In this document: positions 1-39,296 of the stretch, one piece after another
How the letters are laid out: every line of letters begins with the position of its first letter
Position numbering within the stretch: the stretch's first letter is position 1
Assembly (NCBI GenBank): GCA_038061615.1
Contig: JBBTYY010000063.1
Span: forward strand, 1 to 39,296
DNA from: Patescibacteria group bacterium
Lineage (GTDB): Bacteria; Patescibacteriota; Microgenomatia; Levybacterales; UBA12049
DNA: 39,296 bases
Direction: 5' to 3'
Translations under genes and position numbers: made by a program
Notes under the pieces: model-generated
What the model was told of the DNA's origin: nothing
The model's input: the letters and a program-made list of their open reading frames with translations, nothing else
Database searches by the model: none

Positions 1-348
1 TTTGAATAAATTGTAAGAGGAGAAAACAGAAATAATCAAAAACGGCCAAAACCAAACCAACCTTTCGATTAATACCCAGGGCACATGAAAAAAATTAAAC
101 AATAACGATGTAGTAGATAAAAAATAAGTATTTAGTGCGAGTAAGAAAACCGTGGTGCCTCCAAGTCCATTAAAAAATCCTGGGTCCCATGCGTATGGAT
201 AAAGAGTAAATCCACGAATCATCTCGGGAAACTTATGACTCCAATCCCCCGATGATAAAGAATAAAAACTAAACCAATTCTTAAAAATTAAAAAAACGAT
301 AACAATCAAGCCTAGATAAATCAAAAACAAAATAAAATTCTTTTTCAT
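1..348 (-). CDS. polytopic membrane protein, N-terminal 116 aa only (3' end runs off the window start); possible GT-C-type protein
   Basis: Not in the ORF track. ATG at 348..346 (cat on + strand) and the frame stays open to base 1. My translation is MKKNFILFLIYLGLIVIVFLIFKNWFSFYSLSSGDWSHKFPEMIRGFTLYPYAWDPGFFNGLGGTTVFLLALNTYFLSTTSLLFNFFHVPWVLIERLVWFWPFLIISVFSSYNLFK. It shows an N-terminal TM helix, then a loop and further hydrophobic helices. Confidence 0.6.
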   Translation of the reverse strand, partial: MKKNFILFLIYLGLIVIVFLIFKNWFSFYSLSSGDWSHKFPEMIRGFTLYPYAWDPGFFNGLGGTTVFLLALNTYFLSTTSLLFNFFHVPWVLIERLVWFWPFLIISVFSSYNLFK

Positions 349-410
349 AAGCGACCTACAAAATTAATAAATATTTTGCATTTTACGATATTTTTCCCAT
401 TAAAATTCAT

Positions 411-1574
411 TTATACAACAGCAAACATCTGCGGATAAATTTTCCTGTAATAATATTTCTTGCTGAGCCTATAAGCATTTTTGCTGTATGCAGAATAATT
501 GTTTAGAATCTTTCTAACACTGTCTATTAAATCTTGGCTGTTGTTGTAGTCAATTACAACACCCGCTTTTGACCTATCAATCTCCTCTGAAATTTCAACC
601 AAATTTGTGGTTATAACAGGAATTCCCAAGCTTAAATACCTTTTAATCTTCCCCGGATCTCCATACTGGGAAACATTACTTGGATCAGACGTATATGTAG
701 CAATTCCTATCGTACATTTTCTTAAGACATCATTAAACGACTCCCCTTCAAGGAATCCATAAAATGTAGCTGTTATCTTAGATTTTTTTGCCCGTGCTTT
801 AAGATAATTCTCATCAGGACCAGACCCAACTATTTCATATCCAATATCACCAAATTCACCTATAAGCGCGGTAGCATTATTAAAGATTATTTCAACTCCT
901 TGCGTTTTTTTTAGAACACCTATAAAACCAAATCTCAATGGCTTTATAGACCTTTTCTTCGGTATTGCAAGCTTATCTGTACCAATCGGTACAATAGGAT
1001 ATCTCGCCTTTCCGTCATAAATTCCGATATTTTTTCGCAAAGTTAAAAGTCTGTTGTTTACAAAAGTAACCACATCAGAATGAGAGCTTATTTTGTCAAA
1101 CTGCCAATAAATGTATCTCATAAACATAACGAATTTATTTTCGTGGATAGGAGGATAATAATCCCAAACCCAAAAAATTGTTTTATCAACTATGCCTGCG
1201 CCTTTTAAAATCCTTCCAATCCATGCAGTAAACGCATTAACAGTAAAATAAATATTTATCTTTTTAAATTTACGTTTTAGCCAAAAAGAATATGCAATTA
1301 TTTCAAAAAATGTCATTACCGATCTAAATGGTATAAAAGCATGAACATACTTAGTGGAAATCGGAAACTGAAATAAGTATAACTTTTTTTTCTCCTTCCC
1401 ATTCTTATATATAATTAATTGATTAAAAACTCTCTCATCATTCAAATTATGGAAACCTAAAGAGAAAAGACAAACATTCTCAAAATTATCTAAAAGATAA
1501 TCTAAAATTTTTCCTGAATTTTCGTATGGAGAATAATTCACATATATAATAGTTTTTTTATTTCTACCGCTCAT
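411..1574 (-). CDS. divergent GT-B (GT4-like) glycosyltransferase, paralogue of 13107..14342
   Basis: The ORF-track frame 411..1592 begins at TTG. The first ATG is at 1574 (MSGRNKK...). The C-terminal half has a GT-B layout (FYGFLEGESFNDVLRKCTIGIATYTSDPSNVSQYGDPGKIKRYLSLGIPVITTN) and aligns by eye with FYGFVSSSIEMSKLIRKCAVGLAPYRDIPGSVRHYADAGKIRAYCASGLPVISSH of 13107..14342. Confidence 0.7.
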   Translation of the reverse strand: MSGRNKKTIIYVNYSPYENSGKILDYLLDNFENVCLFSLGFHNLNDERVFNQLIIYKNGKEKKKLYLFQFPISTKYVHAFIPFRSVMTFFEIIAYSFWLKRKFKKINIYFTVNAFTAWIGRILKGAGIVDKTIFWVWDYYPPIHENKFVMFMRYIYWQFDKISSHSDVVTFVNNRLLTLRKNIGIYDGKARYPIVPIGTDKLAIPKKRSIKPLRFGFIGVLKKTQGVEIIFNNATALIGEFGDIGYEIVGSGPDENYLKARAKKSKITATFYGFLEGESFNDVLRKCTIGIATYTSDPSNVSQYGDPGKIKRYLSLGIPVITTNLVEISEEIDRSKAGVVIDYNNSQDLIDSVRKILNNYSAYSKNAYRLSKKYYYRKIYPQMFAVV

Positions 1575-1588
1575 ATTATTACCAGAAA

Positions 1589-2680
1589 TCAAGTAGTACT
1601 TATTACGCTATCTATTAAATTAACTATCATTGATACATCTTCCATTGGAAGATCCTCGTAAAGCGGGAGACAGAGTACGGAATGAGATATTTTTTCACTG
1701 TTCTTCAAGTTATATTTTTCGTTGATGTACGGAAATTCATGAATTGGCGGGTAAAAATACCTTCTTGGAATGATCCCGTTTTTTAAAAGAACATTTTGAA
1801 CCTTCTTCGTAGTCTTTTCGTTCTCAAAACAGATTGGAAAATAAGGATATGTAAAGTAAGTTAAATCTTTACTTAAGACTTGCAACTTTAATCTTGAATT
1901 GTTTTTAAAATGAGACGCATAAAAACTATAAATTTTCTTTCTCTTGTCCACTCTTTCTCTGTAATCAGCTAACTGCATCAACCCCATTACTGCTTCAAAC
2001 TCATTCATTCTGGCATTTATGCCAGGCAATACCACTTCCTCTTTCGATTTAATACCATGATTTGAAAGTAATTTAATTTTATCTCTTATCATCTTGCTCT
2101 GACTCACAACTGCCCCTCCCTCAATAGTGTGAAATGTTTTTGCTGCATGAAAACTTAATGTACTTGCGTCACCCCATCGAAGTATCGATTTTCCTCTATA
2201 CTCAACTCCAAAGGCATGCGCCGCATCATATATTAGTTTTAGATTATATTTTTGGGACAAATTCGAAAGGCCCTCCATATCGCACGGGTTGCCAAAAACG
2301 TGTACGGCAAGTATTGCAGATGTTTTTTTACTTATCTTTTTCTCCACTTCTTTCGGATCTATGTTAAACGTATTTGGATCTATATCTACAAATACCGGCT
2401 TTATTCCTTCCCAAATTAGAGAATTAGTGGTTGCAGGAAAAGTAAAAGGTGTGGTTATTACCTCTCCTTTTAAATCCAGGGCTTTATATGCAAGCTGCAG
2501 GGCGAGTGTGCCGTTTCCAAGAAGCATTATATTCTCTACTTTAAGAAATTTCTTTAATTCTATCTCTAATTTCTTACTGAATTCACCGTCATTTGTTACC
2601 CAATTATTTTCCCAAATTTTGTTTAGATATTTTATGTAGGTGTTTAAAGGCGGCAAATGGGTTTTAGTTACATTAATCAT
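1589..2680 (-). CDS. DegT/DnrJ/EryC1/StrS-family PLP-dependent sugar aminotransferase
   Basis: Family motifs LGNGTLALQLAYKAL, DAAHAFG and SFHAAKTFHTIEGG (Schiff-base Lys). 363 aa, ATG start. The start overlaps the upstream stop as TAATG. Confidence 0.9.
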   Translation of the reverse strand: MINVTKTHLPPLNTYIKYLNKIWENNWVTNDGEFSKKLEIELKKFLKVENIMLLGNGTLALQLAYKALDLKGEVITTPFTFPATTNSLIWEGIKPVFVDIDPNTFNIDPKEVEKKISKKTSAILAVHVFGNPCDMEGLSNLSQKYNLKLIYDAAHAFGVEYRGKSILRWGDASTLSFHAAKTFHTIEGGAVVSQSKMIRDKIKLLSNHGIKSKEEVVLPGINARMNEFEAVMGLMQLADYRERVDKRKKIYSFYASHFKNNSRLKLQVLSKDLTYFTYPYFPICFENEKTTKKVQNVLLKNGIIPRRYFYPPIHEFPYINEKYNLKNSEKISHSVLCLPLYEDLPMEDVSMIVNLIDSVISTT

Positions 2681-3321
2681 TATAAAAGCTCCTCCCAGTC
2701 TTTTTCTGTTAGCCTTCTCACAACTTTAGCCGGATTGCCATATACTAAAGAGTTATCTGGTATATCAGAAACCACAACTGAACCAGCCCCTATTATTGTA
2801 TGTTTTCCAATTTTTATGCCATGAATGATAATAGCACCTATTCCTATAAAACTTCCTTCTCCAATGCTAACTTTACCTGCAATATTAACACCAGGACTGA
2901 TTGTAACAAAATTCCCAATAAAGCAATCATGATTAATTGTAGCTCCAATGTTAATTAGCACATGTTTTCCAATGCTTATATCTCTTGTAAGGATTGCCCC
3001 TGGAGATACGACTAAGTCTCTACCTCTATTAACATTTTCTCCTATAAACGTACTAGGATGAATTGACTCAGCAAAACTAAATTTTCCTTCAAGCTCCGTA
3101 ATCCATTTACTCCTGAGTGGAGATCCTATTCCATTAATTAAAATTGCTTTTTTCTCTTTAAAATTTTTAAAATTGTAAACTTTCCTTGGCAAATTCTTAT
3201 TACTGCTTTTTCTATTAATTAAAAATCCTACAACCATTGACTCTTTTTTCAAATCCTTAAAGATTTGAAAGACTTCCCTTGCCATTCCTCCATCTCCTAA
3301 GATATAAATTTTATTTTGCAT
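2680..3321 (-). CDS. NeuD/PglD-family sugar N-acetyltransferase (left-handed beta-helix)
   Basis: N-terminal Rossmann-like IYILGDGGMAREV, followed by hexapeptide repeats INHDCFIGNFVTISPGVNIAGKVSIGEGSFIGIGAIIIHGIKIGKHTIIGAGSVVVSDIP..YGNPAKV. It lies immediately upstream of the aminotransferase. Confidence 0.85.
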   Translation of the reverse strand: MQNKIYILGDGGMAREVFQIFKDLKKESMVVGFLINRKSSNKNLPRKVYNFKNFKEKKAILINGIGSPLRSKWITELEGKFSFAESIHPSTFIGENVNRGRDLVVSPGAILTRDISIGKHVLINIGATINHDCFIGNFVTISPGVNIAGKVSIGEGSFIGIGAIIIHGIKIGKHTIIGAGSVVVSDIPDNSLVYGNPAKVVRRLTEKDWEELL

Positions 3322-4204
3322 AATTATTATTGAAATTTTTATTAATCCAAAAATTTCCTGCCACCAATATTTTCATAATTAAAAAGAGAATGTAAATTGG
3401 GAAAGATTTAAAGGTTTTTTTCCACTTGCCATCTTCAATAAAAATTCCTACAAGACGATAAAAGGGACTGAATTGTTTTTTAACAATTTGATTGTAAATT
3501 TTTCTATTTTTTTTAGCCCATTTTCTTTTATATAATTCAAGACCTTCTGTATAAATTCTTTTTTTTGTAATAAATCCCCAAAAGCCTAAACGTTCTTCAT
3601 GGTGATAGGCATATTCATCTATATATTTAAATATAGCAGAAGCCTCTATAAGCTGATTTGTTATATCCCAATCTGCTGGTCCTCCGCTCAGAATCGGATC
3701 ATACTGCCTTTCGGTTTTAAAGAAAATTGATTTTTTAATAATTCTTGGTACCGCAACAACAGAATGTTGATAAAATTTTTCCTCAAAATTTCTAATCTTA
3801 TTTAACATTCCTTTTGCAACTACCTTATAAGGCATATACCATGAATCTATTTCTGAAAATTTTTTTTCAAGATTGGAAAAGCTTTCAATCAGTTTTGAAC
3901 TTAATTCGACATCGTGGTCCAAAATTAGAATATATTTTCCCTTTGCAGCCTTAGCACCAACATTAACTTGATTACAAACCTGCGGAGGCTTACCATAAAC
4001 TTCAATAAACTTTGTGTTAATCTTGAATTTTTGAATCTTCTTTTTTAACAGAAAACCCTTAGCCCAGTAATTATTGGAAATAATTACTTCATATAGGTTC
4101 TTAGAGCAAGTTTGTTTGTAGATACTTTCAAGAGGAATATCTATAAGATTAAGGGAATTTTGGTATGTTGGTATTATTATCGAGACTAAAATTTTATCTT
4201 TCAT
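3311..4204 (-). CDS. family 2 glycosyltransferase (GT-A fold)
   Basis: N-terminal VSIIIPTYQN motif, acidic ILDHDVE motif, 297 aa, hydrophobic C-terminal helix (IYILFLIMKILVAGNFW). Confidence 0.8.
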   Translation of the reverse strand: MKDKILVSIIIPTYQNSLNLIDIPLESIYKQTCSKNLYEVIISNNYWAKGFLLKKKIQKFKINTKFIEVYGKPPQVCNQVNVGAKAAKGKYILILDHDVELSSKLIESFSNLEKKFSEIDSWYMPYKVVAKGMLNKIRNFEEKFYQHSVVAVPRIIKKSIFFKTERQYDPILSGGPADWDITNQLIEASAIFKYIDEYAYHHEERLGFWGFITKKRIYTEGLELYKRKWAKKNRKIYNQIVKKQFSPFYRLVGIFIEDGKWKKTFKSFPIYILFLIMKILVAGNFWINKNFNNNYAK

Positions 4205-4292
4205 TATTGATAGGAAAATAGATAATTTTTGGCAGGTTTTTTTGCATATAGGTGATTATAATATATTTCTTTCTAATTTGTATTAGAAACTA

Positions 4293-4301
4293 TGGTATAA
4301 T
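4293..4301 (+). promoter_or_regulatory. extended -10-like box TGgTATAAT, 7 nt upstream of the ATG at 4309
   Basis: tggtataat read directly from the sequence. Such boxes occur often by chance in AT-rich DNA. Confidence 0.3.
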
Positions 4302-4308
4302 TTTTTGT

Positions 4309-4968
4309 ATGAAAAAAATTTATGACTTATGGTGGAAAGAGGGTGGCTTAGCAGAGGGACATGATTTTAAATGGAAATGGCCAAAAATAAAAAGAGTGCT
4401 TCCTCCAAAAAATTGCACAATACTAGACTTTGGCTGTGGAGAAGGAAGATATATAGAGGAATTTTTAAAAGTGGATCCCTATAAAATTGTTGGAATAGAC
4501 ATTTCTTCTTATGCTATAAAAGAAGCGAAAAAGAAATTTCCTAAAGCTAAACTTTATGCACTTTCCGGAGATGAAAAATTACCAATAAAAAATGAGAATA
4601 TTGATTTTATTCTAGCAGCAGATGTAATTGAACATATATTTGATGTTTCAAATTTTTTATTTGAGATGAACCGTTGTCTTAAAAAGGGAGGAAAAATTTT
4701 CATAAGCACCCCATATTATGGAACGATAAAAAATCTTGTAATTGCTTTAATAGGCTTCGAGATTGTTTACAGTCCCCATTCTCAACATATTAGATTCTTC
4801 ACTAAAAAAAGTTTATCTACTCTTTTAAAGAATCATGGATTTTCTGTTCTTTCCTACGGAGAATACGGAAGATTTAAACCCTTATCAAGAGGCATGTATT
4901 TTGTCGCAGAGAAAGTTAAAAAAACCAGATATGATAAATCAATTTATAGAGATATGTTGCCTCGCTAA
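4309..4968 (+). CDS. class I SAM-dependent methyltransferase
   Basis: Motif I ILDFGCGEGRY, then VGIDIS and AADVIEHIFD. The ORF-track start at 4252 is GTG. The first ATG is at 4309 (MKKIYDLWW). Its stop overlaps the stop of the convergent gene (CTAA at 4965-4968). Confidence 0.85.
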   Translation: MKKIYDLWWKEGGLAEGHDFKWKWPKIKRVLPPKNCTILDFGCGEGRYIEEFLKVDPYKIVGIDISSYAIKEAKKKFPKAKLYALSGDEKLPIKNENIDFILAADVIEHIFDVSNFLFEMNRCLKKGGKIFISTPYYGTIKNLVIALIGFEIVYSPHSQHIRFFTKKSLSTLLKNHGFSVLSYGEYGRFKPLSRGMYFVAEKVKKTRYDKSIYRDMLPR

Positions 4969-5711
4969 TCAGTTTCGACGTATATTGTATTTAAGTCGTT
5001 TGAATAAAAAACTTCATAACCATTCTTAATCATCAACCTATCTATAAACCTCTTTTTATTATTTTTAGACCGTTGGGGAATTAACCAAAAATCTCCTGTT
5101 TCTACACATATCGCTTTTGGCCTAAACCTCTCCCAATCATTACTTCTTAAAACCTCAAAGTCCATACCTTCCGTATCTACTGTTATAAAATCAATTTTCT
5201 TCTTATAAAATTTTTTAATAATGTCTTCTAATCTATATATTTTTACTTTATAAGCTTTTTTTAACTTACAACCTAATTTTATTTTATTTTCCATGTCTTT
5301 CTTACTGAAAGTAGACAGGGCATTCATCTCAAACTCATAAAAGACAGCACTATATTTTTTTTTACCAATTCCAACATTTAGGTTTATGTCCCTTTTTCTC
5401 TTGATGACAAACTTCTTTAACAGTATGGGATTAGGTTCAATATTTATCCCTCTCCATCCTCTTAAATAAAATTTTTTAGTATTACTAAAAATATCCGGAT
5501 CGTTAGCGCCGACATCAATATAGAAACCCTTTTTCTTTCCTTTAAAAATTTGCTCTAAAATTAAATCTTCTCCTTTTTGACTAAAAGAGCCCCTAATATA
5601 TTTTTTAATAATAACGTTATTAAATCCATTAATTAAAAAAAATAGCAAAGCTAAAAAACCTTTCTTTTTGTATAATTCTTTTAATTGAATAAAAAGAGCG
5701 TAAAAATTCAT
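4965..5711 (-). CDS. FkbM-family methyltransferase
   Basis: Family-typical YIDVGANDPDIFSNT, INIEPNP and DFITVDTEGMDFEVL. 248 aa, ATG start. Confidence 0.85.
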   Translation of the reverse strand: MNFYALFIQLKELYKKKGFLALLFFLINGFNNVIIKKYIRGSFSQKGEDLILEQIFKGKKKGFYIDVGANDPDIFSNTKKFYLRGWRGINIEPNPILLKKFVIKRKRDINLNVGIGKKKYSAVFYEFEMNALSTFSKKDMENKIKLGCKLKKAYKVKIYRLEDIIKKFYKKKIDFITVDTEGMDFEVLRSNDWERFRPKAICVETGDFWLIPQRSKNNKKRFIDRLMIKNGYEVFYSNDLNTIYVETD

Positions 5712-5714
5712 TAT

Positions 5715-7382
5715 TTAGTCTTCGAATATAGTCTTTCTAAATTCTTTTGAGATATCTTTAAAGGTATAATTGTCTTCATTTATTTCCAAAGCAACGACAA
5801 TATTTTTTGATAAGTGGTTTTTCTTAAGCGTATCTTCTAACTTGCTTTTTGTAACAAAATATCCAAAACTTCTATCTCCGACCTTTTTGTAGTCCTCTGA
5901 TAACATATGAAATAAAAATTCCTTGGTAAAAAAGGGTCCCCATTCTTTTTCATGACCTACAGCATACATAACTAAAATATTCATTCCCGGACCAGATGAA
6001 AAAGGCAGTACATTTTCCGAAGGTATCCCAAGCTCACCATTACGGTAACACTTATTTTTACATTTAACATAAAAAATTGTATTCTTAGAAAGCACAGGAT
6101 GCACTTCACGCAGACTATTAAGAACTTGCTTTTTTACAATACCAGAATGACTCATGTAATCTACTGCTATTCTTATTTCCTGGAAAGAGGTTATAAGCAA
6201 TACGGCAAAAAGAGTAATGACGCTAATTTTTTTAGCATAGTTAAAAATTCTTATTCTCCCTTTCGAAGTATATAGGGTATACATAAATATTGAAAGAAAG
6301 GAAAGCACAGGGAAACTTGAAAAATATAAATATCTTGGTTCAACAACTGATATATGCCGACCCACAAATGAAAGCATAAACGCGTTAGCAAGTATCCAGA
6401 TCAAAAAGAAAATAAAAATTGGAACTATGCGTTTTGGTCTAATATTCCATAACCATAAAGCGCAAATAGCGATTATAATGCTGAAAATATAGAAAAATGC
6501 CGCATCCATTATGGGTGCCTGACTTGTAAAATAAGACTCAATATCTGGATATGTTTTTTTAGTATTATTAAGAAAAAACAAAGCAATTCTTTCAGACCAA
6601 ACTAAATTTTGTACGACAAATTTTACAGGTATTGTTGCTAAATTATATTCTGCACCACTTCCCGTAATCTGATATTGAACAGGAATAGATTCGGTATTTA
6701 AGCTTTGGGCAAAAAGTCTTATGAATAAAAAAATGATTACTCCGGCGGTAAACAAACCTAAATACTTAAAATTATTTTTATTAATTTTCTTTTTATCAAA
6801 ACAAAATAAATATACTGCAAACAAGGGAATAATAATAAATCCCTCTTCCCTGATGGAAACTGCGGCAAGAAAAATCAGAAATAATATTATAATTTTTTTA
6901 AGTGAAACTATTTTTTCTTTTATACCTGAAAGATAGACAAAAAATAATAAGATAAAAAACATGGCTGCATCAGTTGAGTGAAGAAATGCAAGATGCGTAA
7001 ACGCCTGATACGCCCTTCCATTTAATAAGAACAGTAAACCGGTAAGTACTGCAATTGCTTTATTTTTTGTTAAACGCATTGTTAGGATAAACACTAACGT
7101 AGCAACAGAAGAGTGAACAATAAGTTCAGTTAAAAAATAATATTGCGCCTGAAGATTGAATATCTTATAGAGAGCGCTCCAAAAAAAAGTCCCTAGGGGC
7201 GAAAAGTGCACCCAAGGGACTAAAATATTCCACCAGGGGAGATTATATGAATTCATTACGTTTGCAATTCCAAGCCACTCATCTTGCTCAAAATAACCAT
7301 TTAACAAGCCCTGTGTTGCGATAAAAATAATTATGAAAAAGATGGAAAACACTAGGAGAAAAGTTTTTAGATTTCTGTACAT
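5715..7382 (-). CDS. polytopic membrane protein, candidate GT-C-type glycosyltransferase with a C-terminal soluble domain
   Basis: 555 aa with many hydrophobic helices. There is an acidic motif just after TM1 (GYFEQDEWLGIANVM), where GT-C enzymes carry their catalytic Asp/Glu. The last ~150 aa are hydrophilic. Confidence 0.55.
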   Translation of the reverse strand: MYRNLKTFLLVFSIFFIIIFIATQGLLNGYFEQDEWLGIANVMNSYNLPWWNILVPWVHFSPLGTFFWSALYKIFNLQAQYYFLTELIVHSSVATLVFILTMRLTKNKAIAVLTGLLFLLNGRAYQAFTHLAFLHSTDAAMFFILLFFVYLSGIKEKIVSLKKIIILFLIFLAAVSIREEGFIIIPLFAVYLFCFDKKKINKNNFKYLGLFTAGVIIFLFIRLFAQSLNTESIPVQYQITGSGAEYNLATIPVKFVVQNLVWSERIALFFLNNTKKTYPDIESYFTSQAPIMDAAFFYIFSIIIAICALWLWNIRPKRIVPIFIFFLIWILANAFMLSFVGRHISVVEPRYLYFSSFPVLSFLSIFMYTLYTSKGRIRIFNYAKKISVITLFAVLLITSFQEIRIAVDYMSHSGIVKKQVLNSLREVHPVLSKNTIFYVKCKNKCYRNGELGIPSENVLPFSSGPGMNILVMYAVGHEKEWGPFFTKEFLFHMLSEDYKKVGDRSFGYFVTKSKLEDTLKKNHLSKNIVVALEINEDNYTFKDISKEFRKTIFED

Positions 7383-7472
7383 ATTTTAATGACTGAAAAA
7401 TCGAAAAGCGCGTTTTATTTTAAAACTGATTTTACTTTGCAAAATATAGTGGTAATTATAACAAAATAGAAA

Positions 7473-7478
7473 TATAAT
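7473..7478 (+). promoter_or_regulatory. -10-like TATAAT, 10 nt upstream of the ATG at 7489
   Basis: tataat sits in the divergent intergenic region 7383..7488. Confidence 0.25.
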
Positions 7479-7488
7479 ATAAACTGCT

Positions 7489-8487: not shown

Positions 8488-8492
8488 AATAT

Positions 8493-11823: not shown

Positions 11824-11839
11824 ATGCAGGGAATTATTA

Positions 11840-15153: not shown

Positions 15154-15168
15154 ATAAAATTGTGGAGA

Positions 15169-30335: not shown

Positions 30336-31117
30336 GTTAAATGCTTAATATATGATACAGGAAATCGTAGTGCAGAAAAAAGTGAAAAAACAAAACCCGG
30401 CCATAAATCCAAAAATCCTTTGTGTCTTATGTAAGTAATTAAGAACCAATGAGAAGGTTTTATCAAGAGGTATACAAAAGCATAAAATATCTTTTCAAAA
30501 ACATTTTTCTCACTCTGCTCTTCTTTAATTTGACTAGCTATAAGATCTGTGTACCTTTGCCATTTTTTGAAATATTCGGAAAAATCTTTATATGGATAAT
30601 GGAGAAGGGCTTCCTTTAAATAACCTGCCTTTCCATCTACGACAGCTTGCTCATGCACATCTTTTTGTGGTAATTTTCCTTTTCCTCTCTTATATAATCT
30701 GAGAGTATAATCCGGATACTGTCCGCCTTTCATAAGAAATCTTCCTAAAAACCAGTTCTTCCTAGGTATCCAATAACCATTAACTTCAGTATTTTGTATC
30801 CTGTATTTAGTATTTAGTATTCTTTTAATTTCTTTTTTTAGCTCGGGGGAGACTATTTCATCAGCGTCAAGTTGAAGAACCCAATCACAAGTCGCAAGAT
30901 CAATTGCCATTTGTTTATTGATATGGAAGTTTCTCTTATTTGTAGTAATCTTTACTTTCGCTCCATATTTTTTCGCAATTTGGACTGTCGCGTCTACTGA
31001 TGTACCATCCACTGTCACAATCTCATCTGCTAAATCTTTGATGCTTTCTAGACACGCGGATAACTTTTTCTCCTCGTTATAGGTAGCTAAAACCACAGAT
31101 ATTGTTTTCCCTGACAT
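30332..31117 (-). CDS. family 2 glycosyltransferase
   Basis: ISVVLATYNEEKKLSACLESI, IVTVDGTSVD and LDADE (DxD). 261 aa. Confidence 0.85.
   Translation of the reverse strand: MSGKTISVVLATYNEEKKLSACLESIKDLADEIVTVDGTSVDATVQIAKKYGAKVKITTNKRNFHINKQMAIDLATCDWVLQLDADEIVSPELKKEIKRILNTKYRIQNTEVNGYWIPRKNWFLGRFLMKGGQYPDYTLRLYKRGKGKLPQKDVHEQAVVDGKAGYLKEALLHYPYKDFSEYFKKWQRYTDLIASQIKEEQSEKNVFEKIFYAFVYLLIKPSHWFLITYIRHKGFLDLWPGFVFSLFSALRFPVSYIKHLT
30789..30823. repeat. five tandem degenerate heptamers GTATNNN inside GT2 CDS 30332..31117
   Basis: gtatttt gtatcct gtattta gtattta gtattct. Confidence 0.8.
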
Positions 31118-31232: not shown

Positions 31233-32462
31233 ATGGATGTTTCCTCACCTATAAAACGCCATGGTAGATTAATAATCTTTATCCTACTGCTTATCTTTTG
31301 CCTCTACTCAACTTTTCTTTATTTAACGGTTGGACAAAGAGGATATGATAAAGTCCTATCTCAGCTTGCTGCGCAATTTATGCAAGGAAATCTAAGTCTT
31401 TCAATTTATAATTTACCGGTAAGAGATATCTCAAACTATTACAACAATTTTTATGTATACTTCGGTCCGCTCGCATCAATATTGCTAATTCCTGGAGTAT
31501 TTTTTCAGGGAGACAATTTCCCTCAAGTAACTATTGGAGTCGGATCAATGATTATATCTTTTTTTGCAGTATATTTCATTTCGAAAAAATTTAAATTCGA
31601 TCGTCTTGACAGCCTATGGCTTGGTTTATTTTTTGTTTTTTCAACTGTTTTATTTAGCTCAAGCGTGATTAACATAACTGCTTATCAGGTTGAAGCTCTC
31701 GGAGTCCCTCTAATCTTGTTGGCAATTTGGGCTTATCTCTATAAGAAAAACGGCTTACTGATCGGCATATTCATTGGACTTGCCACTATGACAAGAATTA
31801 CTTTAGTATTGAGTGTTATTTTTTTCTTTTTGGAATTAATAAGAAAAAGAATCTCGATAAAACAGTTCACGCTAATTTTAATCCCAATTATTATAGCTAT
31901 ATCGTTCTTAGGCTTGTATAACTCTCGGCGTTTTCATTCGATTTTTGAGACAGGTTATAGCTACAATATTTCGATAAAAGACTTACCGATTGGGGATAAT
32001 TTTAAATACGGTCAAAGTAATATAATTCATGTTCCGGCAAATCTGTATAGCTTTTTATTAATGTCTCCAGAACCATTACTTAAAGATAAAAACGATGGAT
32101 TTACCCTTAAATTTCCATTTATAAAAATGAGTCCATGGGGCGCTGCAATTTGGTTTACCTCTCCATTATTCCTACTACTTCTAACAAGATTTAGGAATGG
32201 AAAATTTACTATCCCAGCAGGTCTTACGACTTTATTTTTATCAATGCCGGTATTATTGTGGTACAGTATTGGATATGCACAGGTTGGATATCGCTATGCC
32301 CTTGATTTCCTACCCTTTCTATTTTTACTTTTAATCCCTTCTTTATCTCCAAAATTAACGAAAACCGCGATAATGCTTATAATAATTGGCGTTATTTTTA
32401 ATTGTGTTTATACTACAAGTATTTGGGAAATATACCCATTATTTAATATTTATCATAAATAA
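31233..32462 (+). CDS. polytopic membrane protein, candidate GT-C-type glycosyltransferase
   Basis: 409 aa and about 11 helices. The first loop carries acidic residues (QRGYDKVLSQ...VRDISNYYNNFYVYFGP). A conserved-looking motif GYAQVGYRYALDFLPF lies near the C-terminus. Confidence 0.45.
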   Translation: MDVSSPIKRHGRLIIFILLLIFCLYSTFLYLTVGQRGYDKVLSQLAAQFMQGNLSLSIYNLPVRDISNYYNNFYVYFGPLASILLIPGVFFQGDNFPQVTIGVGSMIISFFAVYFISKKFKFDRLDSLWLGLFFVFSTVLFSSSVINITAYQVEALGVPLILLAIWAYLYKKNGLLIGIFIGLATMTRITLVLSVIFFFLELIRKRISIKQFTLILIPIIIAISFLGLYNSRRFHSIFETGYSYNISIKDLPIGDNFKYGQSNIIHVPANLYSFLLMSPEPLLKDKNDGFTLKFPFIKMSPWGAAIWFTSPLFLLLLTRFRNGKFTIPAGLTTLFLSMPVLLWYSIGYAQVGYRYALDFLPFLFLLLIPSLSPKLTKTAIMLIIIGVIFNCVYTTSIWEIYPLFNIYHK

Positions 32463-32492: not shown

Positions 32493-34142
32493 TTATTTCT
32501 TTGTTTTAATTTTAATAAGATAATACAAGAAGAATCCTCCAGAAATACTTGCCAGTGAAGCAAATGAAATTACATCTGCAAAAAATCTTAATTTTGTTTC
32601 TACATATTTTGCCTCAACAGTATAATGCCCTTCATCTAATGTAAACTTCATAACTCCATTATAATGCTGCGTGTGAAAATCAACATCAACTTGCTTACCG
32701 TTTGCTTTCATTTCCCAACCGGGAAAATAAACAGTATTTTCTCTAAAAATAGTTTTTTTATTAACTACAACTTTATATTTATGATACGTAGATCTTCTTT
32801 CTATATTTTCTACTCGCGCATCCCCATCTACTATTTCGAGATTTGCCTCCGGTCTTTTCTCCATAAACCTTACCGACCATATTGGCGCGCTTTCTCCTGT
32901 ATCTGTTGTACTTTCATAAATACTCGTATAAAAACTTTCCGGTTTTTGCATATATCCTTTTGGCTTCCAATAAGAACTGCTTATTGCAAGAATAATAATT
33001 ATCGATAATATTGTAAGTTTAGCTTTAAATTTATTAGGAACCGCATCTATCAACAATGCCCCTAAGACAGACGTAGAAAAGACAATTATTGCTAAAAATC
33101 TCCACGGAAATTGAAAGTTCTGAAGAAGAATAATTCTTTCCCAGATAGAATTTGAAATTGGAAGCATTAGAAATATTGCAAGAACTAAATACATAAGTAA
33201 TAAAAATAATAAGTATAATTTTTCTTTATTTTTTTTGTACTTTAAGAAAACGAATGGCGACGCAATAATTGCAATCCATTGAAAAAGCCCAAATTGTACC
33301 GTGAATACCCCGGAACCGCCATAATTCCACGGTCCATATAGAAGATCTTTAAAGTTTACAAATCTTCCGATATAACCACCCGCTGTAACTATATTTCTAA
33401 GAGTATATTTCCCTTCCAGAAGTCCCGGTATCCAGAAAAAAGCAGATATTCCAAAACCTATAAGTATTAAGAATAAAGTATTGAGTATTAAGTATTTATT
33501 ATATTTAGATAAGTAAATAAGATAAAAGCAATATGCAATGATAAATGGCATAAACATCAGGCTAATACCATTGTGAGAAAGAATTAGAAATGCAAGAGAA
33601 AAAGATCCAAAAATTGCATCTATAAATCGCTTACGTTTGTAAATTCTGTGAATGTAAAAAAGAACTAATGGAATAAATGTAAATGCGAGGTGCTCACCAA
33701 TATCTCCTCTTACATAAAGCTCGACGAACCGATAGGGTGCATAAGTGTACAGCACTGCTCCGAACAGTGCCGAGAATCTTGAGACAAATTGAGAAAGCCA
33801 AAGATACATAAAGAAAAAAGAGGAAATCATTCCAAGTCCAAAAACAATTTTTACAGAATCCACAAGAGAAAATCCCAAAAAGTGAAAAACTGAAGCAAAA
33901 TAAGAAGGTAAGGGATACAGGAATTCGAGAATTGGATGACCGTATCCCCAATTTAGATTACCTGCCCATCGCGGAATAATATTTCCTTCAGTGAGATTTT
34001 GATAAAAATTAGCAATCCTCGCTACATGATCCTGCCCATCATGAGTGATAGGCAAGCCAGGATTCAATAAAGAAAATACTGGAATAATTGAGAGTATTAT
34101 TATTAATAATATAAACACATTTTTATTAATTATTTTATTCAT
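32493..34142 (-). CDS. polytopic membrane protein, YfhO-like / PTPS-related-type GT-C candidate; paralogue of 24294..25934
   Basis: See 24294..25934. The C-terminal domain contains VYFPGWEMKANGKQV. Confidence 0.6.
   Translation of the reverse strand: MNKIINKNVFILLIIILSIIPVFSLLNPGLPITHDGQDHVARIANFYQNLTEGNIIPRWAGNLNWGYGHPILEFLYPLPSYFASVFHFLGFSLVDSVKIVFGLGMISSFFFMYLWLSQFVSRFSALFGAVLYTYAPYRFVELYVRGDIGEHLAFTFIPLVLFYIHRIYKRKRFIDAIFGSFSLAFLILSHNGISLMFMPFIIAYCFYLIYLSKYNKYLILNTLFLILIGFGISAFFWIPGLLEGKYTLRNIVTAGGYIGRFVNFKDLLYGPWNYGGSGVFTVQFGLFQWIAIIASPFVFLKYKKNKEKLYLLFLLLMYLVLAIFLMLPISNSIWERIILLQNFQFPWRFLAIIVFSTSVLGALLIDAVPNKFKAKLTILSIIIILAISSSYWKPKGYMQKPESFYTSIYESTTDTGESAPIWSVRFMEKRPEANLEIVDGDARVENIERRSTYHKYKVVVNKKTIFRENTVYFPGWEMKANGKQVDVDFHTQHYNGVMKFTLDEGHYTVEAKYVETKLRFFADVISFASLASISGGFFLYYLIKIKTKK
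33464..33498. repeat. five tandem degenerate heptamers GTATTNA inside CDS 32493..34142
   Basis: gtattaa gaataaa gtattga gtattaa gtattta. Confidence 0.75.
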
Positions 34143-35418
34143 AAACTATTATTCCTTTTTGTCTCATTAAATAATAATATAAATAAGATTCCGGAACTCC
34201 CTGCTGAAACCCAATTTGCTTTCCCCGACTGATTGCTTGTAATACGGCCCTTTCTCTGTCGGCTAATCCTGTATCTTTATGAGATAGGAAACTTGTTACA
34301 TTCGTTGTTGCTATATAAATTAATATTATTAAAAGAGCCACTTTGGGAACTATATTCTTAATCATCCAGACTCTGGCAAAAAAATAAGAAATGATAAGAA
34401 GAGCTATAAATCTGTTAATAGAAAAATAATAATCGCTAATCTCTCCGCTATAGGTGGCGAAAACAAACCACGGAACAATAAACCAAAGCAAAACAAGATA
34501 GCAAAAAATTAGTTTTTCTCTTGGAATAGACTTGTATAAATAAAGCAAAAAAAACAAAGGTACTGCTATGAACTTTAAAGGGATTAATTTATCTAAGAAT
34601 GAGTAAGAGTTAAATTGAATTAGACCGTCGCCTGTAAGCTGGACTACTCTTCTTAAATGAAAACCATGGTAGTAAGTGTGAAAATAAGAAGTAAAATTCG
34701 AAGCCGCAGATTTTTGTTGTAGTTGAAAAATAATATTTGGAACCAGCCAAATTAAAAATAAGGGCACAGACAATAAAATATATTTCAAGGTCTCCTTATT
34801 CCTAGGAAAAAAAGGCAACGTCAAAATAATTATGATTGGAAAAAATATTGAAGTGAAATGCACGCTAAGCGAAGCCCCTACCAACAGAGCAAGAACAATT
34901 ATTTTCTTAAAATCTCCTAAGGTTATTCTGTATAAAACGTAAAAAATTATAAAAGAGACAGAGGGAATAAAATTTACATTCCATTGTACCCTATCAAAAA
35001 TAATAGCAGGCAAAAGAAACGTGTTTATAAACACCGCTATTATTGCAACTTCTGCTGAAAATAGTTTTCTTGAAACATAAAATATTACCCAAAAAGTAAA
35101 AATACTAGTTAATCCTGCAAAAATCCCGGAAGCAATAGGATTTAGATTTGTTATCCAATAAATAATAGAAATAAGATAATAATAGAAAGGTCCGAGAAAA
35201 ATTCCACTATTTCCTTTTGCAGCCATTCCAACTAAAGGTAACTTATGGTTTACTATTAAATTCATTGCGGCCCAAGCATTATCAACTTGGTCGTAGCCAA
35301 AAGGACTTTTTCCATTTATATCGTAAAAACGTAGAAGAAGTTCAAATAAAAAAATTGCCAATACTATCAATGGTTTATTATTTTTCAATAATTTCAAATA
35401 TTTTTTAAATTTTTTCAT
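34135..35418 (-). CDS. GT-C membrane glycosyltransferase candidate (ArnT/GT39-like short form)
   Basis: 427 aa. The first-loop acidic motif is PFGYDQVDNAWAAMNLIVNHKLPLVG. About 11 helices and no large soluble domain. Confidence 0.55.
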   Translation of the reverse strand: MKKFKKYLKLLKNNKPLIVLAIFLFELLLRFYDINGKSPFGYDQVDNAWAAMNLIVNHKLPLVGMAAKGNSGIFLGPFYYYLISIIYWITNLNPIASGIFAGLTSIFTFWVIFYVSRKLFSAEVAIIAVFINTFLLPAIIFDRVQWNVNFIPSVSFIIFYVLYRITLGDFKKIIVLALLVGASLSVHFTSIFFPIIIILTLPFFPRNKETLKYILLSVPLFLIWLVPNIIFQLQQKSAASNFTSYFHTYYHGFHLRRVVQLTGDGLIQFNSYSFLDKLIPLKFIAVPLFFLLYLYKSIPREKLIFCYLVLLWFIVPWFVFATYSGEISDYYFSINRFIALLIISYFFARVWMIKNIVPKVALLIILIYIATTNVTSFLSHKDTGLADRERAVLQAISRGKQIGFQQGVPESYLYYYLMRQKGIIVYE

Positions 35419-37088: not shown

Positions 37089-38712
37089 AAGTATATGCTA
37101 CCAACGCTGGCTGACCATTTAGTAGATAAAAAGTTTTAAGAATCGAAATATTTTTGGGTAAATTGAAGGGTGTATTTACATAAAGGACTTTATTTGTCTG
37201 ACTCAGTGAATAATTGTAATTATCAGGAAATATATACTTGCCAAATTTTTCCACCTTCACAAATCCAAAAGCATCTCTATGGACAACAGCTGTTTTTCTA
37301 AAATCTTGCGGACTTGTTTTAGTATAAAAAAGATAATATATGTATGGTCTCCCAAGCGCGTTTGTCATCTGAATATAATCATAATTACTTTCAACTGATT
37401 TAACATAATCTAGAGACTCTTTATATCCGTACTGCCATTCTCCTGAATAATCATATTTATAGTGAGAAAGGTAATCATGATAAAAATAAGTAAAATTTAT
37501 CAGAAGCAGGAAAAACAATGAGCAAATTATCAGATTTTTATATCGTTTTATCCCTCCTATTAATTGAACAAATCCATACGCTGTGATTATCTGAAAAGTT
37601 GGTAAGGTTGTCTCTATTCTTAATGCATGGGGAGTTTCCCGCGCAAAAGCTGCGGGAATTATACCTATAATTAGCCAAGTAGGAATGATCCACCAGTTTC
37701 CTTCCCTTCTTCTAAAAATAAGAAATGCACCAGCTGTGAAGAAAATAATATCCCATATATACATTTGACCGACGTTTTGAGTAGAAAATTTAGGATTTCC
37801 GTCTCCTCTTATGAATAGGAACGATGGGCTTAAGTTATCAAAATAGTGTTTAAAATATTCCCTTGCAAACAGAACCCTTCTGTTATGAATCAACTTAGAC
37901 CATATAGCGTTATTGTCGTTTTTAATTTCTTGATTAGCTGTTTTTATTATGCTACTATCACTGAAAATATTTACTTCTTTAAATCTTAAACTTGCCTGAG
38001 GCGATAAGAGAAACTGCAGGGTTGGCAAAATAAGAATTATTCCCAAAATAATTGCTAAAAACGTTTCTTTTTTTCTGCTTAGTAATTCTTTTCTAAACGC
38101 AAACGCTAGGATCAATACTATAATTGGAACAACTACCCTTGCAGTATTAAAACTATAGATTGATAAAACGAAAGAAATAGCAGAAAATAATAAAATCCAT
38201 CTTTTACCATGCATCGACAGAAGAAACAACCAAATACCTAAAACAATAAAAAAAGTGGCAACGTTTGCTTCAAAAGCGGCACGGGAAAGCATAATATGCC
38301 AAGGGGAAATTGCAAGTATTAATGCTGACATTAAGGCATAAGATTCTTTTAATTTTGATTTCCAAAAAATTCTTTTGACTAAAAAATAAGTTGAAATAAC
38401 CGTTAATACCCCAAACAAAGCAGAAGGAAATCTAACCGCAAATTCATTTAAACCGAAAATCTTAATAGGAAGAACGTCTAAATAAGCATAAACAGGCGGC
38501 TTAAAATCTCCGAAAGACTCAAGGTAATCAAGAGGCAGAAATCTTCCAAACTCATCTTTCCCTTCAATTCCAATTGAGTAGGCATTATACCCCCAAGCTG
38601 CCTCATCCCACGTAAGACTCGGCGGATTACTGCCCAGCTGATAAAATCTTAAAAAAGCAGCAAGAAAAACTATTGAAAATAGAACTAATTTCCAATTTAA
38701 AAATTTTTTCAT
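37081..38712 (-). CDS. GT39/PMT/ArnT-family GT-C glycosyltransferase (tandem copy 2)
   Basis: PPSLTWDEAAWGYNAYSIGIEGKDEFGRFLPLDYLESFGDFKPPVYAYL. 543 aa. Its stop overlaps the downstream start by 8 nt. Confidence 0.75.
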   Translation of the reverse strand: MKKFLNWKLVLFSIVFLAAFLRFYQLGSNPPSLTWDEAAWGYNAYSIGIEGKDEFGRFLPLDYLESFGDFKPPVYAYLDVLPIKIFGLNEFAVRFPSALFGVLTVISTYFLVKRIFWKSKLKESYALMSALILAISPWHIMLSRAAFEANVATFFIVLGIWLFLLSMHGKRWILLFSAISFVLSIYSFNTARVVVPIIVLILAFAFRKELLSRKKETFLAIILGIILILPTLQFLLSPQASLRFKEVNIFSDSSIIKTANQEIKNDNNAIWSKLIHNRRVLFAREYFKHYFDNLSPSFLFIRGDGNPKFSTQNVGQMYIWDIIFFTAGAFLIFRRREGNWWIIPTWLIIGIIPAAFARETPHALRIETTLPTFQIITAYGFVQLIGGIKRYKNLIICSLFFLLLINFTYFYHDYLSHYKYDYSGEWQYGYKESLDYVKSVESNYDYIQMTNALGRPYIYYLFYTKTSPQDFRKTAVVHRDAFGFVKVEKFGKYIFPDNYNYSLSQTNKVLYVNTPFNLPKNISILKTFYLLNGQPALVAYTYD

Positions 38713-38716
38713 TTAA

Positions 38717-39296
38717 TTAATTCTTATAGATCTTCCACACGGTATGCAAGGGCTCTCCTACTTGAATTATTGACTTTATCGGCTCAGTTGCGGTTTCTTT
38801 GTAACAGTCACCAGGAATTACATACAAAGTATTTGGAGGCAAATGAATTCTTGGGTCAAATGGTTTATTGTATGTTTTTATACAATTGCCAATAAAATAA
38901 ATATTTTTCAGTTTTTTATTTTTATATGCGGCCTGAACTATATCTGGATCTTCACGATTAAAAAGCGCATACTGCATAAGCAATCCGCCTTCATTAGCGA
39001 TATAAACTTGTTTATAGTTGTCTTTCTCTTGCACGATGTATTCACTAACATCTCTTGAACTTCTCAACCATGATTCTGCGCCATAGATATTATATCGATA
39101 ATGATATTGATAGAGATATCCTGTAATTAAAAATGCATATAGTAAAATAAAGGCGCTTGTGAAAATGGCTGAATAAATTTTTTTTATCCTCCCAAGCCTT
39201 ACACACATTTCATATATTCCACATCCTACAATGATAGACAAGAATGGCAACATCATTATGCTTCGCAATCCATATGATTTATCAATGGTAATTGTT
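38717..39296 (-). CDS. C-terminal part of a third tandem GT39-like GT-C glycosyltransferase (5' end off window)
   Basis: The ORF-track start at 39268 is TTG, but the frame stays open to the window end (..TITIDKSYGLRSIMMLPFLSIIVGCGIY). This stretch aligns with HALRIETTLPTFQIITAYGF of the neighbouring paralogue, and the following C-terminal domain is colinear. Confidence 0.65.
   Translation of the reverse strand, partial: TITIDKSYGLRSIMMLPFLSIIVGCGIYEMCVRLGRIKKIYSAIFTSAFILLYAFLITGYLYQYHYRYNIYGAESWLRSSRDVSEYIVQEKDNYKQVYIANEGGLLMQYALFNREDPDIVQAAYKNKKLKNIYFIGNCIKTYNKPFDPRIHLPPNTLYVIPGDCYKETATEPIKSIIQVGEPLHTVWKIYKN

Follow-up and report, generated by a model that had tools for sequence, protein, structure and literature searches.

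The window studied here, i.e., the whole stretch of 39,296 bases (~31% G+C) that was analysed, comes from an uncultured member of the Microgenomates group (Candidatus Levybacteria) within the Patescibacteria, or Candidate Phyla Radiation (CPR), and encodes thirteen proteins with the homology or the fold of GT-C glycosyltransferases. Their genes (orfL, orf7, orf10, orf18, orf24, orf25, orf26, orf30, orf31, orf32, orf33, orf34 and orf35) cover 18,309 of the 39,296 bases (46.6%), and their products represent at least seven sequence families, four of which (the orf7, orf10/orfL, orf25 and orf30 types) have no model in Pfam or NCBIfam and were unclassified until now. The same count of thirteen had been reached in a preliminary description of this DNA, and the interpretation given there, a multi-step decoration machinery acting outside the membrane, finds support within the reach of sequence analysis and structure prediction. 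GT-C enzymes and glycan gene clusters are already known; what is unusual is the presence of thirteen GT-C genes in 39 kb, with more past both ends, an architecture that is kept across a CPR lineage, and four unclassified GT-C families. Full-text searches of the literature retrieved no account of GT-C arrays of this kind in CPR bacteria, apart from short comments on CPR genomes in which several genes are annotated as mannosyltransferases.

Thirteen proteins with GT-C homology or fold

According to hydropathy, the 12 candidates with a full sequence (orfL through its copy on a longer contig, L003) have 8–11 transmembrane (TM) helices, orf35 being a fragment. Five proteins pass Pfam gathering scores, i.e., orf18, orf33 and orf34 for PMT_2 (orf34 also for PMT) and orf24 and orf31 for PTPS_related; these three families are included, along with GT87, in the Pfam clan CL0111 (GT-C) (PMC7801869). 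PMT itself (PF02366) is matched above threshold by orf34 only (48.4 bits for a threshold of 22.7, with W-D36-E37 in loop 1), orf18 coming just under it (22.1 bits). The two PTPS_related proteins, orf24 and orf31, are paralogues (33% identity across 510 amino acids), and orf33 and orf34 share 38% identity. The shorter orf32 falls 0.8 bit under the PMT_2 gathering score, and its family profile is aligned by hhalign to those of the orf33 and orf34 families with probabilities of 97–98%. Likewise, orf35 is recognised by the hidden Markov models (HMMs) of the orf33 family (3.3e-15) and of the orf34 family (6.3e-13), while full-length orfL, which has no Pfam match, is recognised by the HMM of the orf10 family (E 3.3e-13) and by that of the PTPS_related-type orf31 family (E 5.8e-8).

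The other families are more divergent. Searches of orf7, orf9, orf10, orf25, orf30, orfL and orf35 against Pfam (at E ≤10) and NCBIfam (at E ≤0.1) returned nothing usable, and sequence and profile searches of PDB chains with orf10 and the family profiles gave no meaningful match, the best being PimE at E 1.3 (orf30 profile). The orf7 family (52 homologues, none annotated; no Pfam or NCBIfam family) is nonetheless linked by hhalign to those of orf32 (94%), orf34 (93.5%) and orf25 (88%), with orf33 within 88–94%, vs. 0.3% for a Wzx control and at most 5.4% for reversed alignments. For its part, orf25, which has no family match even at E 10 and whose 101 homologues are all unannotated, belongs to a family linked to those of orf10 (94%), orf7 (88%) and orf32 (84%), the reversed control being at most 8.5%. 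Over all families, the Wzx control remains at or below 1%, and reversed alignments at or below 17%, mostly at or below 2%. The six motif types had initially been described as unrelated; on the contrary, profile comparison links all of them except that of orf26.

This last protein has a precomputed match to PF26314 (MptA_B_family), along with sub-threshold matches to GT87 (PF09594; E 0.0088, 16.2 bits vs. 25) and to the NCBIfam model AZOBR_p60025 (3.9e-5). A GT87/MptA_B match is found in 1 of 9 orf26 orthologues. The orf26 profile retrieves no sequence from the PDB and is not linked to the families of the other 12 candidates, its best hhalign probability (32%, with orf7) being too near the 17% of the reversed controls. 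When 50 members of the orf30 family and nine members of the orf26 family were scanned with Pfam, no hidden family was uncovered.

Structures were modelled with AlphaFold2 (AF2) for orf10, which has no family match above noise, and for orf30, which has the weakest profile links. The orf10 model was built on 31 homologues and reaches a mean predicted local distance difference test (pLDDT) of 86.2. Its top 22 Foldseek matches in the PDB are all GT-C enzymes, including STT3 (5.6e-7), AftD (6.8e-6; TMq 0.45, 6w98), DPY19, PglB, ArnT, ALG12 and AftA. The orf30 model (pLDDT 94.1) retrieves a top 23 that is also entirely GT-C, including ArnT (3.7e-4; TMq 0.48), AglB, PimE, GPI-MT-I, PIG-U, STT3, ALG3/9/6, Pmt4 and AftB. 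The family of orf10 comprises 103 homologues, all unannotated and without Pfam assignment, while that of orf30 extends to 1385 representative clusters at E < 1e-3, its only NCBIfam link being a weak match to the Leptospira LA_3751/LA_3752 family (7.5e-5). An oligosaccharyltransferase function was considered for orf10, the top Foldseek matches of which include STT3 and PglB, but was rejected, its sequence lacking WWDxG. A regular-expression search found neither WWD nor W[WYF]D.G in any candidate, and there is no Pfam STT3 match.

At face value, proteins with so many TM helices might be transporters or flippases in which the acidic motifs are coincidental, all the more so as the window does contain one true flippase, the Wzx protein orf22. 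We regard this reading, for which only composition speaks, as very improbable. In the Foldseek lists of both orf10 and orf30, transporters appear only at E > 0.1 and with a probability < 0.1, which contradicts it for these two proteins; moreover, the Wzx family does not exceed 1% against any candidate family, and the motif residues are invariant (see below). The preliminary description had itself envisaged that structure predictions or profile searches might reveal no GT-C fold in most of the candidates. Instead, we obtained five Pfam passes, two predicted structures with GT-C neighbours only at the top of their lists, and a set of profile and HMM links.

A conserved acidic residue in a loop predicted to face outside

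All six loop motifs given in the preliminary description could be located. WDEAA is found at residue 36 of orf33 and 35 of orf34, FDEYAW at residue 53 of orf18, YDQVDN at residue 42 of orf32, THDG at residues 44 and 33 of orf24 and orf31, respectively, GGDDTR at residue 46 of orf10, YDIFNY...ENPY at residue 94 of orf26 and EQDEW at residue 32 of orf7. The acid was said to lie in the first loop after TM1, but in orf25 and orf26 the motif follows the third or fourth predicted helix.

Nine families had enough homologues for conservation to be assessed in alignments. The acidic positions are D36/E37 in the orf34 family (61/61), D37/E38 in the orf33 family (61/61), D43 in the orf32 family (24/24), D35 in the orf31 family (40/40), D95 in the orf26 family (9/9), D48 in the orf10 family (31/31), D34/E35 in the orf7 family (35/35), D125 in the orf25 family (36/36) and D65 in the orf30 family (48/50, the remaining two having E). 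Also invariant are W36 in the orf7 family and G46 and G47 in the orf10 family. In profile alignments, the acids of the orf34, orf32, orf31, orf10 and orf7 families are in register.

These observations bear on the idea that the divergent proteins orf7, orf25, orfL and orf30 are, at least in part, not glycosyltransferases but scaffolds or proteins that put the GT-C fold to another use, such as non-catalytic subunits similar to PIG-U, polymerase- or ligase-like proteins or lipid-modifying enzymes. PIG-U, a subunit of the glycosylphosphatidylinositol transamidase without glycosyltransferase role, is indeed found among the Foldseek matches of orf30 (ranks 8, 12 and 17), and none of the four families has a characterised member. 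Yet, the invariant acid of each family aligns with the position of the catalytic Asp/Glu in PMT_2-type families, and the structures matched best (ArnT, STT3 and AftD) are those of catalytic enzymes, so that we consider this possibility improbable.

Regarding orientation, a tail carrying Lys/Arg precedes TM1 in all candidates whose N-terminus is complete, orf25 excepted, the tail being short in orf26 and orfL. Where the counting of TM helices is reliable, Lys/Arg residues are biased towards the N-terminal side of the membrane (24 vs. 3 in orf10, 20 vs. 5 in orf7 and 22 vs. 11 in orf32). Because of this bias, the positive-inside rule predicts that the motif loops face outside, including in orf25 and orf26 despite the later position of their motif. 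A cytoplasmic location of these loops, which had also been envisaged beforehand, is thus not what the bias points to.

Gene content, extent and conservation of the locus

From the listing and translation of open reading frames (ORFs), we accepted 37 genes, one more than the 36 coding sequences reported earlier: 35 are complete, while a minus-strand N-terminal fragment (1-348) and a C-terminal fragment (38717-39296) are cut by the window ends (Table 1). All are on the minus strand except three (4252-4968, 7489-8487 and 31233-32462), and neighbouring genes mostly overlap by 1–11 bases or are separated by less than 25 bases, so that the region reads as a single long co-directional gene string. 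The third exception, orf30, is the sole plus-strand GT-C gene and is separated from the start of orf29 by a divergent intergenic region of 115 bases. Besides the GT-C proteins, only two products are polytopic, orf22 (Wzx) and the accessory membrane protein orf9. The soluble set is composed of four GT4 and four GT2 glycosyltransferases and of sugar enzymes, i.e., a DegT aminotransferase, a NeuD/PglD-type N-acetyltransferase, four enzymes of the short-chain dehydrogenase/reductase (SDR) type, including a GalE-like one, and an RmlC-like cupin. The tailoring set has three methyltransferases, a second hexapeptide acetyltransferase and a membrane-anchored SGNH/GDSL protein. Pfam and NCBIfam thus bear out the Wzx flippase, the GT2 resembling polyprenyl-phosphate-sugar synthases, the nucleotide-sugar enzymes and the tailoring enzymes named beforehand. 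The eight Leloir enzymes announced alongside them are eight indeed, except that this total already includes the synthase-like GT2. No tRNA gene, Rfam match or notable tandem repeat was found in the window. Its G+C content dips to ~27% at 8000-11000 (orf9 and orf10), vs. ~31–33% elsewhere.

Table 1. Genes of the window, with their position, strand and the basis of their assignment (aa, amino acids; SAM, S-adenosylmethionine)
Gene or product	Position	Strand	Basis and remarks
orfL, N-terminal 116 aa of a GT-C-like protein (698 aa)	1-348	-	motif SGDWSH...AWDPG; distant orf10 paralogue
GT4 (GT-B fold) Leloir glycosyltransferase	411-1592	-	Pfam Glycos_transf_1 / Glyco_trans_1_4
DegT/DesI/PseC-type sugar aminotransferase	1589-2680	-	Pfam DegT_DnrJ_EryC1 6.6e-96; NCBIfam DesI, PseC below cut-off
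NeuD/PglB/VioB-family amino-sugar N-acetyltransferase	2680-3321	-	NCBIfam TIGR03570 183 bits (cut-off 160.8); Pfam Hexapep, PglD_N
orf4, GT2 with C-terminal TM helix	3311-4204	-	Pfam Glycos_transf_2; hydropathy
orf5, SAM-dependent methyltransferase	4252-4968	+	Pfam Methyltransf_23/11
FkbM-family methyltransferase	4965-5711	-	Pfam Methyltransf_21 1e-24
orf7, GT-C-like, unclassified family, EQDEW	5715-7382	-	profile links
orf8, membrane-anchored SGNH/GDSL esterase or acyltransferase	7489-8487	+	Pfam Lipase_GDSL_2 2e-19
orf9, membrane protein, no known family	8493-9590	-	N-terminal TM helix, ~170-aa outside domain, C-terminal TM bundle
orf10, GT-C fold, unclassified family, GGDDTR; C-terminal beta-rich outside domain	9544-11823	-	AF2 and Foldseek
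Hexapeptide-repeat acetyltransferase	11840-12445	-	Pfam Hexapep 3e-18
SAM-dependent methyltransferase	12442-13083	-	Pfam Methyltransf_11/25
GT4 Leloir glycosyltransferase	13107-14342	-	Pfam Glycos_transf_1
Three SDR-type nucleotide-sugar enzymes: 14326-15153; 15169-16143 (GDP-fucose-synthase-like); 16262-17206 (4,6-dehydratase-like)	14326-17206	-	Pfam Epimerase, GDP_Man_Dehyd; NCBIfam below cut-off
orf17, GT2 with C-terminal TM helix	17208-18038	-	Pfam Glycos_transf_2 8e-19
orf18, PMT_2-type GT-C, FDEYAW	18028-19392	-	Pfam PMT_2 6.7e-15, 56.1 bits (gathering 26.1)
orf19, GT4 Leloir glycosyltransferase	19465-20583	-	Pfam Glycos_transf_1 1.9e-39
orf20, GT2 resembling polyprenyl-phosphate-sugar synthases	20583-21356	-	NCBIfam matches below cut-off
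RmlC-like cupin (sugar 3,5-epimerase-like)	21353-21907	-	Pfam dTDP_sugar_isom 3.5e-15
orf22, Wzx-type flippase, MOP superfamily	21907-23190	-	Pfam Polysacc_synt 4e-11, Polysacc_synt_3
orf23, GT4 Leloir glycosyltransferase	23191-24351	-	Pfam Glycos_transf_1 3.4e-31
orf24, PTPS_related-type GT-C, THDG	24294-25958	-	Pfam PTPS_related 1.2e-18
orf25, GT-C-like, unclassified family, D125...H129...R134 loop	25900-27723	-	profile links
orf26, MptA_B/GT87-like GT-C, YDIFNY...ENPY	27723-28835	-	precomputed Pfam PF26314 match
orf27, small secreted or anchored protein	28828-29382	-	weak DUF5667 match; syntenic partner of orf26
orf28, GalE-like UDP-hexose 4-epimerase	29355-30335	-	Pfam Epimerase 8.6e-52
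orf29, GT2 with hydrophobic C-terminus	30332-31117	-	Pfam Glycos_transf_2 1.1e-20; 66 related ORFs
orf30, compact 409-aa GT-C fold, unclassified large family, D65	31233-32462	+	AF2 and Foldseek
orf31, PTPS_related-type GT-C, THDG	32493-34142	-	Pfam PTPS_related 3.8e-12
orf32, short PMT_2-like GT-C, YDQVDN	34135-35418	-	PMT_2 25.3 bits (gathering 26.1)
orf33, PMT_2-type GT-C, WDEAA	35418-37088	-	Pfam PMT_2 7.4e-12
orf34, PMT/PMT_2-type GT-C, WDEAA	37081-38712	-	Pfam PMT_2 2.8e-15, PMT 1.1e-12
orf35, third paralogue of the orf33/34 type, truncated at the end of the contig (C-terminal 192 aa)	38717-39296	-	frame open to the window end

To examine conservation, one genome per species was scanned, yielding 78 related loci whose ORFs were matched to the window proteins. 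Named relatives are 53–72% identical in Candidatus Levybacteria/Levyibacteriota and 41–56% in Gottesmanbacteria and Roizmanbacteria. A core order recurs in all three groups: an orf20-like GT2 (not in all loci), one to six orf34/33-type paralogues, orf32, orf31, orf29 (GT2) and orf28 (GalE), followed in relatives either by orf27, orf26 and orf25/24 or by orf23, orf22, orf20 and orf19. In the 51 loci that are 18 kb long or longer, we counted a median of eight GT-C-like ORFs per ~21.6 kb (range 3–12), a figure that describes the array rather than genome averages, these loci being centred on an orf34 relative. Moreover, separate orthologues of orf33 and orf34 are found in most relatives, suggesting that the two have distinct, non-redundant roles and are not recent, redundant copies. 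Synteny with GCA_002430675.1 covers the left part of the window, from orf19 to orf7. In another relative, L012 (Levybacteria RIFCSPHIGHO2_01_FULL_36_15b), the 10 kb upstream of the orf34 orthologue contain four GT2, a GT4, a methyltransferase and two YfhO-family GT-C genes (1906-4257 and 5545-7791; Pfam 1.9e-34 and 7e-22) interleaved with the GT2 and GT4 genes; the window contig stops before the equivalent region. Many syntenic loci that are 55–70% identical (L007, L009-L011, L013, L014 and many others) come from public records of metagenome-assembled genomes titled “uncultured Gammaproteobacteria/Pseudomonadales bacterium”, labels that look wrong.

By exact-protein matches, the window sequence was found on Hainich groundwater metagenome contigs from the 0.1- and 0.2-µm filter fractions. 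One of them, L003 (54.7 kb), is 100% identical across 11,592 shared bases and reaches 9.6 kb beyond the left end of the window. It holds orfL complete (698 amino acids, at 11245-13341), followed, in order, by a GT2, an EamA gene, two GT4-domain ORFs, a hexapeptide transferase, a GT2 and a 1065-amino-acid membrane protein. The super-locus is at least 49 kb long, with the window as its central part, and it probably continues past the right end too. The EamA/DMT-family transporter (L003 14496-15368; Pfam 2.5e-36) lies among glycosyltransferase genes just left of the window and, by analogy with ArnE/ArnF, could be a candidate flippase for lipid-linked sugars. The large membrane protein (18495-21182) has no Pfam match, and its residues 565-794 resemble the N-terminus of orf7 (BLASTP 6.8e-10; 63 bits with the orf7-family HMM). 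Its N-terminal half looked by eye like an O-antigen ligase or Wzy, an idea that was dropped for want of Pfam support.

At the right end, independent assemblies (L001 and L002) all break at the same base, window position 39296, within the orf35 paralogue; the tandem paralogues of the orf33/34/35 type probably interrupted the assembly at this point. An assembly of 7x coverage from the 0.2-µm fraction (L002 and L004) is 99.97–99.98% identical to the window and has orf32 split in two (324 + 76 amino acids; window ~34446), as well as the orf5 methyltransferase (100 + 95 amino acids; ~4594 and ~4473). The three substitutions examined where these genes are split all belong to the G>T or C>A type; they could reflect damage or errors in sequencing, or else be genuine nonsense variants.

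The membrane protein orf9 has no family match in Pfam or NCBIfam and is not GT-C-like. In GCA_002430675.1 (L084; DJCT01000001.1, 12181-16212), a single fusion protein of 1344 amino acids combines an orf9-like part (17-333, 36% identical to orf9), an orfL/orf10-like GT-C part (367-969) and an orf8-like GDSL/SGNH part (1038-1363), which are separate genes in the window, with orf8 on the opposite strand. This fusion indicates that orf9 and orf8 are functionally tied to GT-C proteins of the orf10/orfL type, of which orf9 would be a partner.

Proposed function and comparison with known systems

In our opinion, the locus probably serves to glycosylate a surface glycopolymer and/or proteins outside the cytoplasmic membrane, from lipid-linked donors. 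Briefly, the nucleotide-sugar enzymes (dehydratase-like SDR, RmlC-like cupin, DegT, NeuD/PglD-type and GalE) would provide modified sugars, including an N-acetylated amino-deoxyhexose. The four GT4 and some of the GT2 enzymes would build a lipid-linked oligosaccharide on the cytoplasmic side, which Wzx would flip across the membrane, while orf20, and perhaps orf29, orf17 and orf4, would load single sugars onto polyprenyl phosphate. At the outer face, the thirteen GT-C proteins would then use lipid-linked donors, through the invariant Asp/Glu of their outward loop, to transfer, extend and branch the glycan. Finally, the methyl-, acetyl- and SGNH-type enzymes would tailor the product. The cytoplasmic enzymes are members of the families named, from which we infer the pathway; the outer-face role is suggested by the GT-C superfamily, and the donor type, outward topology, catalysis, order of the steps and acceptor are deduced in the same spirit. 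The underlying logic, from GT2 to undecaprenyl-phosphate-linked sugar to GT-C, has been shown experimentally in streptococci (GtrB/PgtC2, PgfS/PgfM1; PMC12041528). In the window, the candidate synthase is orf20, which matches the NCBIfam models of PpgS (E 1.3e-11) and of a dolichyl-phosphate-hexose transferase (2.2e-7) nearly end to end and that of PgfS (1.4e-13) over most of its length, along with a near-full-length AglJ match and an N-terminal ArnC match. In most relatives, an orf20 paralogue sits directly upstream of the GT-C array.

As for the acceptor, we commit to the guess that it would be a heteroglycan anchored to the membrane or the wall and built mostly outside the cell, in the manner of mycobacterial arabinogalactan and lipoarabinomannan (LAM). 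A glycopolymer or lipoglycan is favoured because the number and diversity of the GT-C proteins parallel the assembly of these two polymers; some paralogues may nevertheless act on surface proteins. One could go further and regard the whole array as a battery for protein O-glycosylation, in which each GT-C paralogue moves one sugar from polyprenyl phosphate to Ser/Thr residues of a different class of secreted, pilin or S-layer proteins, the Leloir/Wzx part making a separate glycan. Such a battery would resemble the animal POMT, TMTC and TMEM260 enzymes, or the streptococcal PgfS/PgfE/PgfM1/PgfM2 and GtrB/PgtC2 systems. In its favour, orf34 passes the model of the protein O-mannosyltransferase family (PMT), orf18, orf33 and orf34 pass PMT_2, YfhO-family genes lie just upstream in L012, and the conserved core (orf20-like GT2, GT-C paralogues, GT2 and GalE) amounts to the parts list of the S. 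mutans pgf operon (GT-A synthase, epimerase and two GT-C). However, PMT_2 also takes in lipid and glycan transferases similar to ArnT, so that a match does not specify a protein acceptor. Furthermore, a tract scan found no Ser/Thr-rich acceptor candidate encoded in the window and none recurring in 85 related loci, and thirteen enzymes from seven families are far above any known protein O-glycosylation system. We see this alternative as less likely, yet as a serious rival.

Several points weigh against the glycosylation pathway that we favour. First, orf26 is the least secure of the thirteen assignments, resting on a precomputed match and weak scores, and those of orf7 and orf25 rest on profile–profile probabilities of 84–94%. 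Second, topology is a crude estimate from hydropathy and the positive-inside rule, with helices miscounted in several proteins. Third, orf20 is the only GT2 that clearly resembles polyprenyl-phosphate-sugar synthases, all its specific scores being far under equivalog cut-offs, and no GtrA-type flippase for polyprenyl-phosphate sugars was found, only the EamA transporter outside the window. Fourth, Pfam reveals no initiating phosphoglycosyltransferase, Wzy polymerase, O-antigen/PglL-type ligase or LCP ligase in the window, and Bac_transf, Glycos_transf_4 (MraY-type) and Wzy_C have no match in either the window or its 9.6-kb left extension. Because these initiating, polymerase and ligase genes were not detected, the Wzx-dependent branch is incomplete as seen; they may lie elsewhere in the genome.

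Much of bacterial diversity belongs to the CPR, whose members have minimal genomes and a lifestyle thought to involve attachment to other cells; to our knowledge, the chemistry of their envelope is essentially unknown. With a genome estimated at ~1 Mb, the locus would take up roughly 5% of it. For a genome of this size, devoting 49 kb or more to one conserved locus is a large investment, and it points to an elaborate surface glycoconjugate, with concrete genes to test, while the four families would extend the catalogue of glycosyltransferases using lipid-linked donors. More speculatively, and with considerable doubt, Levybacteria and related Microgenomates might assemble a complex surface heteroglycan mostly on the outside of the cytoplasmic membrane, by means of a dozen or more specialised GT-C enzymes, at least four families of which were previously unclassified. 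To date, no such architecture is known outside the mycobacterial arabinogalactan/LAM pathway and the lumen of the eukaryotic endoplasmic reticulum (ER). If so, both the surface of these ultra-small cells, which are probably episymbionts, and their attachment to a host would depend to a major extent on this glycan.

Compared with known systems, the locus shares with Wzx/Wzy O-antigen, capsule and S-layer-glycan (slg) clusters a Wzx, GT4 and GT2 enzymes, a putative dideoxy-amino-sugar pathway, methyl- and acetyltransferases and the organisation in one co-directional cluster. It differs from them in lacking any detected initiating phosphoglycosyltransferase, Wzy, Wzz or Wzy_C-type ligase in the window, and in that such clusters normally have zero to two GT-C-fold proteins. 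The likeness to PMT/POMT (GT39) and Rv1002c-type enzymes and to ArnT (GT83) lies in the PMT_2 and PMT matches and in the D-E pair of the first predicted outside loop (orf33 and orf34). No MIR domain appeared in Pfam scans of the window proteins; bacterial GT39 enzymes lack MIR as well, so that a PMT of the bacterial type would be compatible with its absence. Among the structural matches of orf30, ArnT ranks first, but this Gram-positive-like lineage has no lipid A for a role similar to that of ArnT. Gtr-type three-component systems, GtrB/CsbB-YfhO and PgfS-PgfE-PgfM1-PgfM2 likewise combine a GT2 synthase of polyprenyl-phosphate sugars, an epimerase and an outside GT-C, and are echoed here by the sub-cut-off matches of orf20 to the PgfS, PpgS and ArnC models, by the GalE kept beside the array and by YfhO upstream in L012. 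In contrast, they have one or two GT-C proteins vs. thirteen of at least seven families here, no GtrA/GtcA flippase was found, and no window protein matches YfhO (PF09586) even at E 10.

The resemblance to arabinogalactan, lipomannan and LAM synthesis in mycobacteria and corynebacteria (EmbA/B/C, AftA-D, PimE, MptA/B/C) is that one glycan is built outside the membrane by many different GT-C enzymes in succession, from polyprenyl-phosphate monosaccharides (presumably so here). Mycobacterial GT-C genes are also partly clustered (aftA-embC-embA-embB, with aftB nearby). Furthermore, the orf10 model matches AftD and AftA, the orf30 model matches PimE and AftB, and orf26 has its precomputed match to the MptA_B_family. 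On the other hand, sequence identity is 10–14% only, and no window protein passes the corresponding Pfam or NCBIfam models, the AftD model (PF11847, GT-C_AftD) giving E 0.047 for orf10 (12.1 bits vs. 26) and E 0.8 for orfL. The density is also higher here (13 in 39 kb), the CPR host has no mycolate envelope, and no genes of the decaprenyl-phospho-arabinose pathway were seen. In the ER lumen, the series ALG3/9/12/6/8/10 and STT3 similarly extends a flipped lipid-linked oligosaccharide with dolichyl-phosphate sugars, and STT3, ALG3, ALG9, ALG12 and ALG6 are among our structural matches, but there is no family membership at the sequence level. Altogether, membership in a known family is restricted to PMT_2/PMT and PTPS_related, while the closest systems by fold and logic are the Emb/Aft/PimE/Mpt series, the Gtr/YfhO/Pgf three-component systems and the ER-lumen ALG series.

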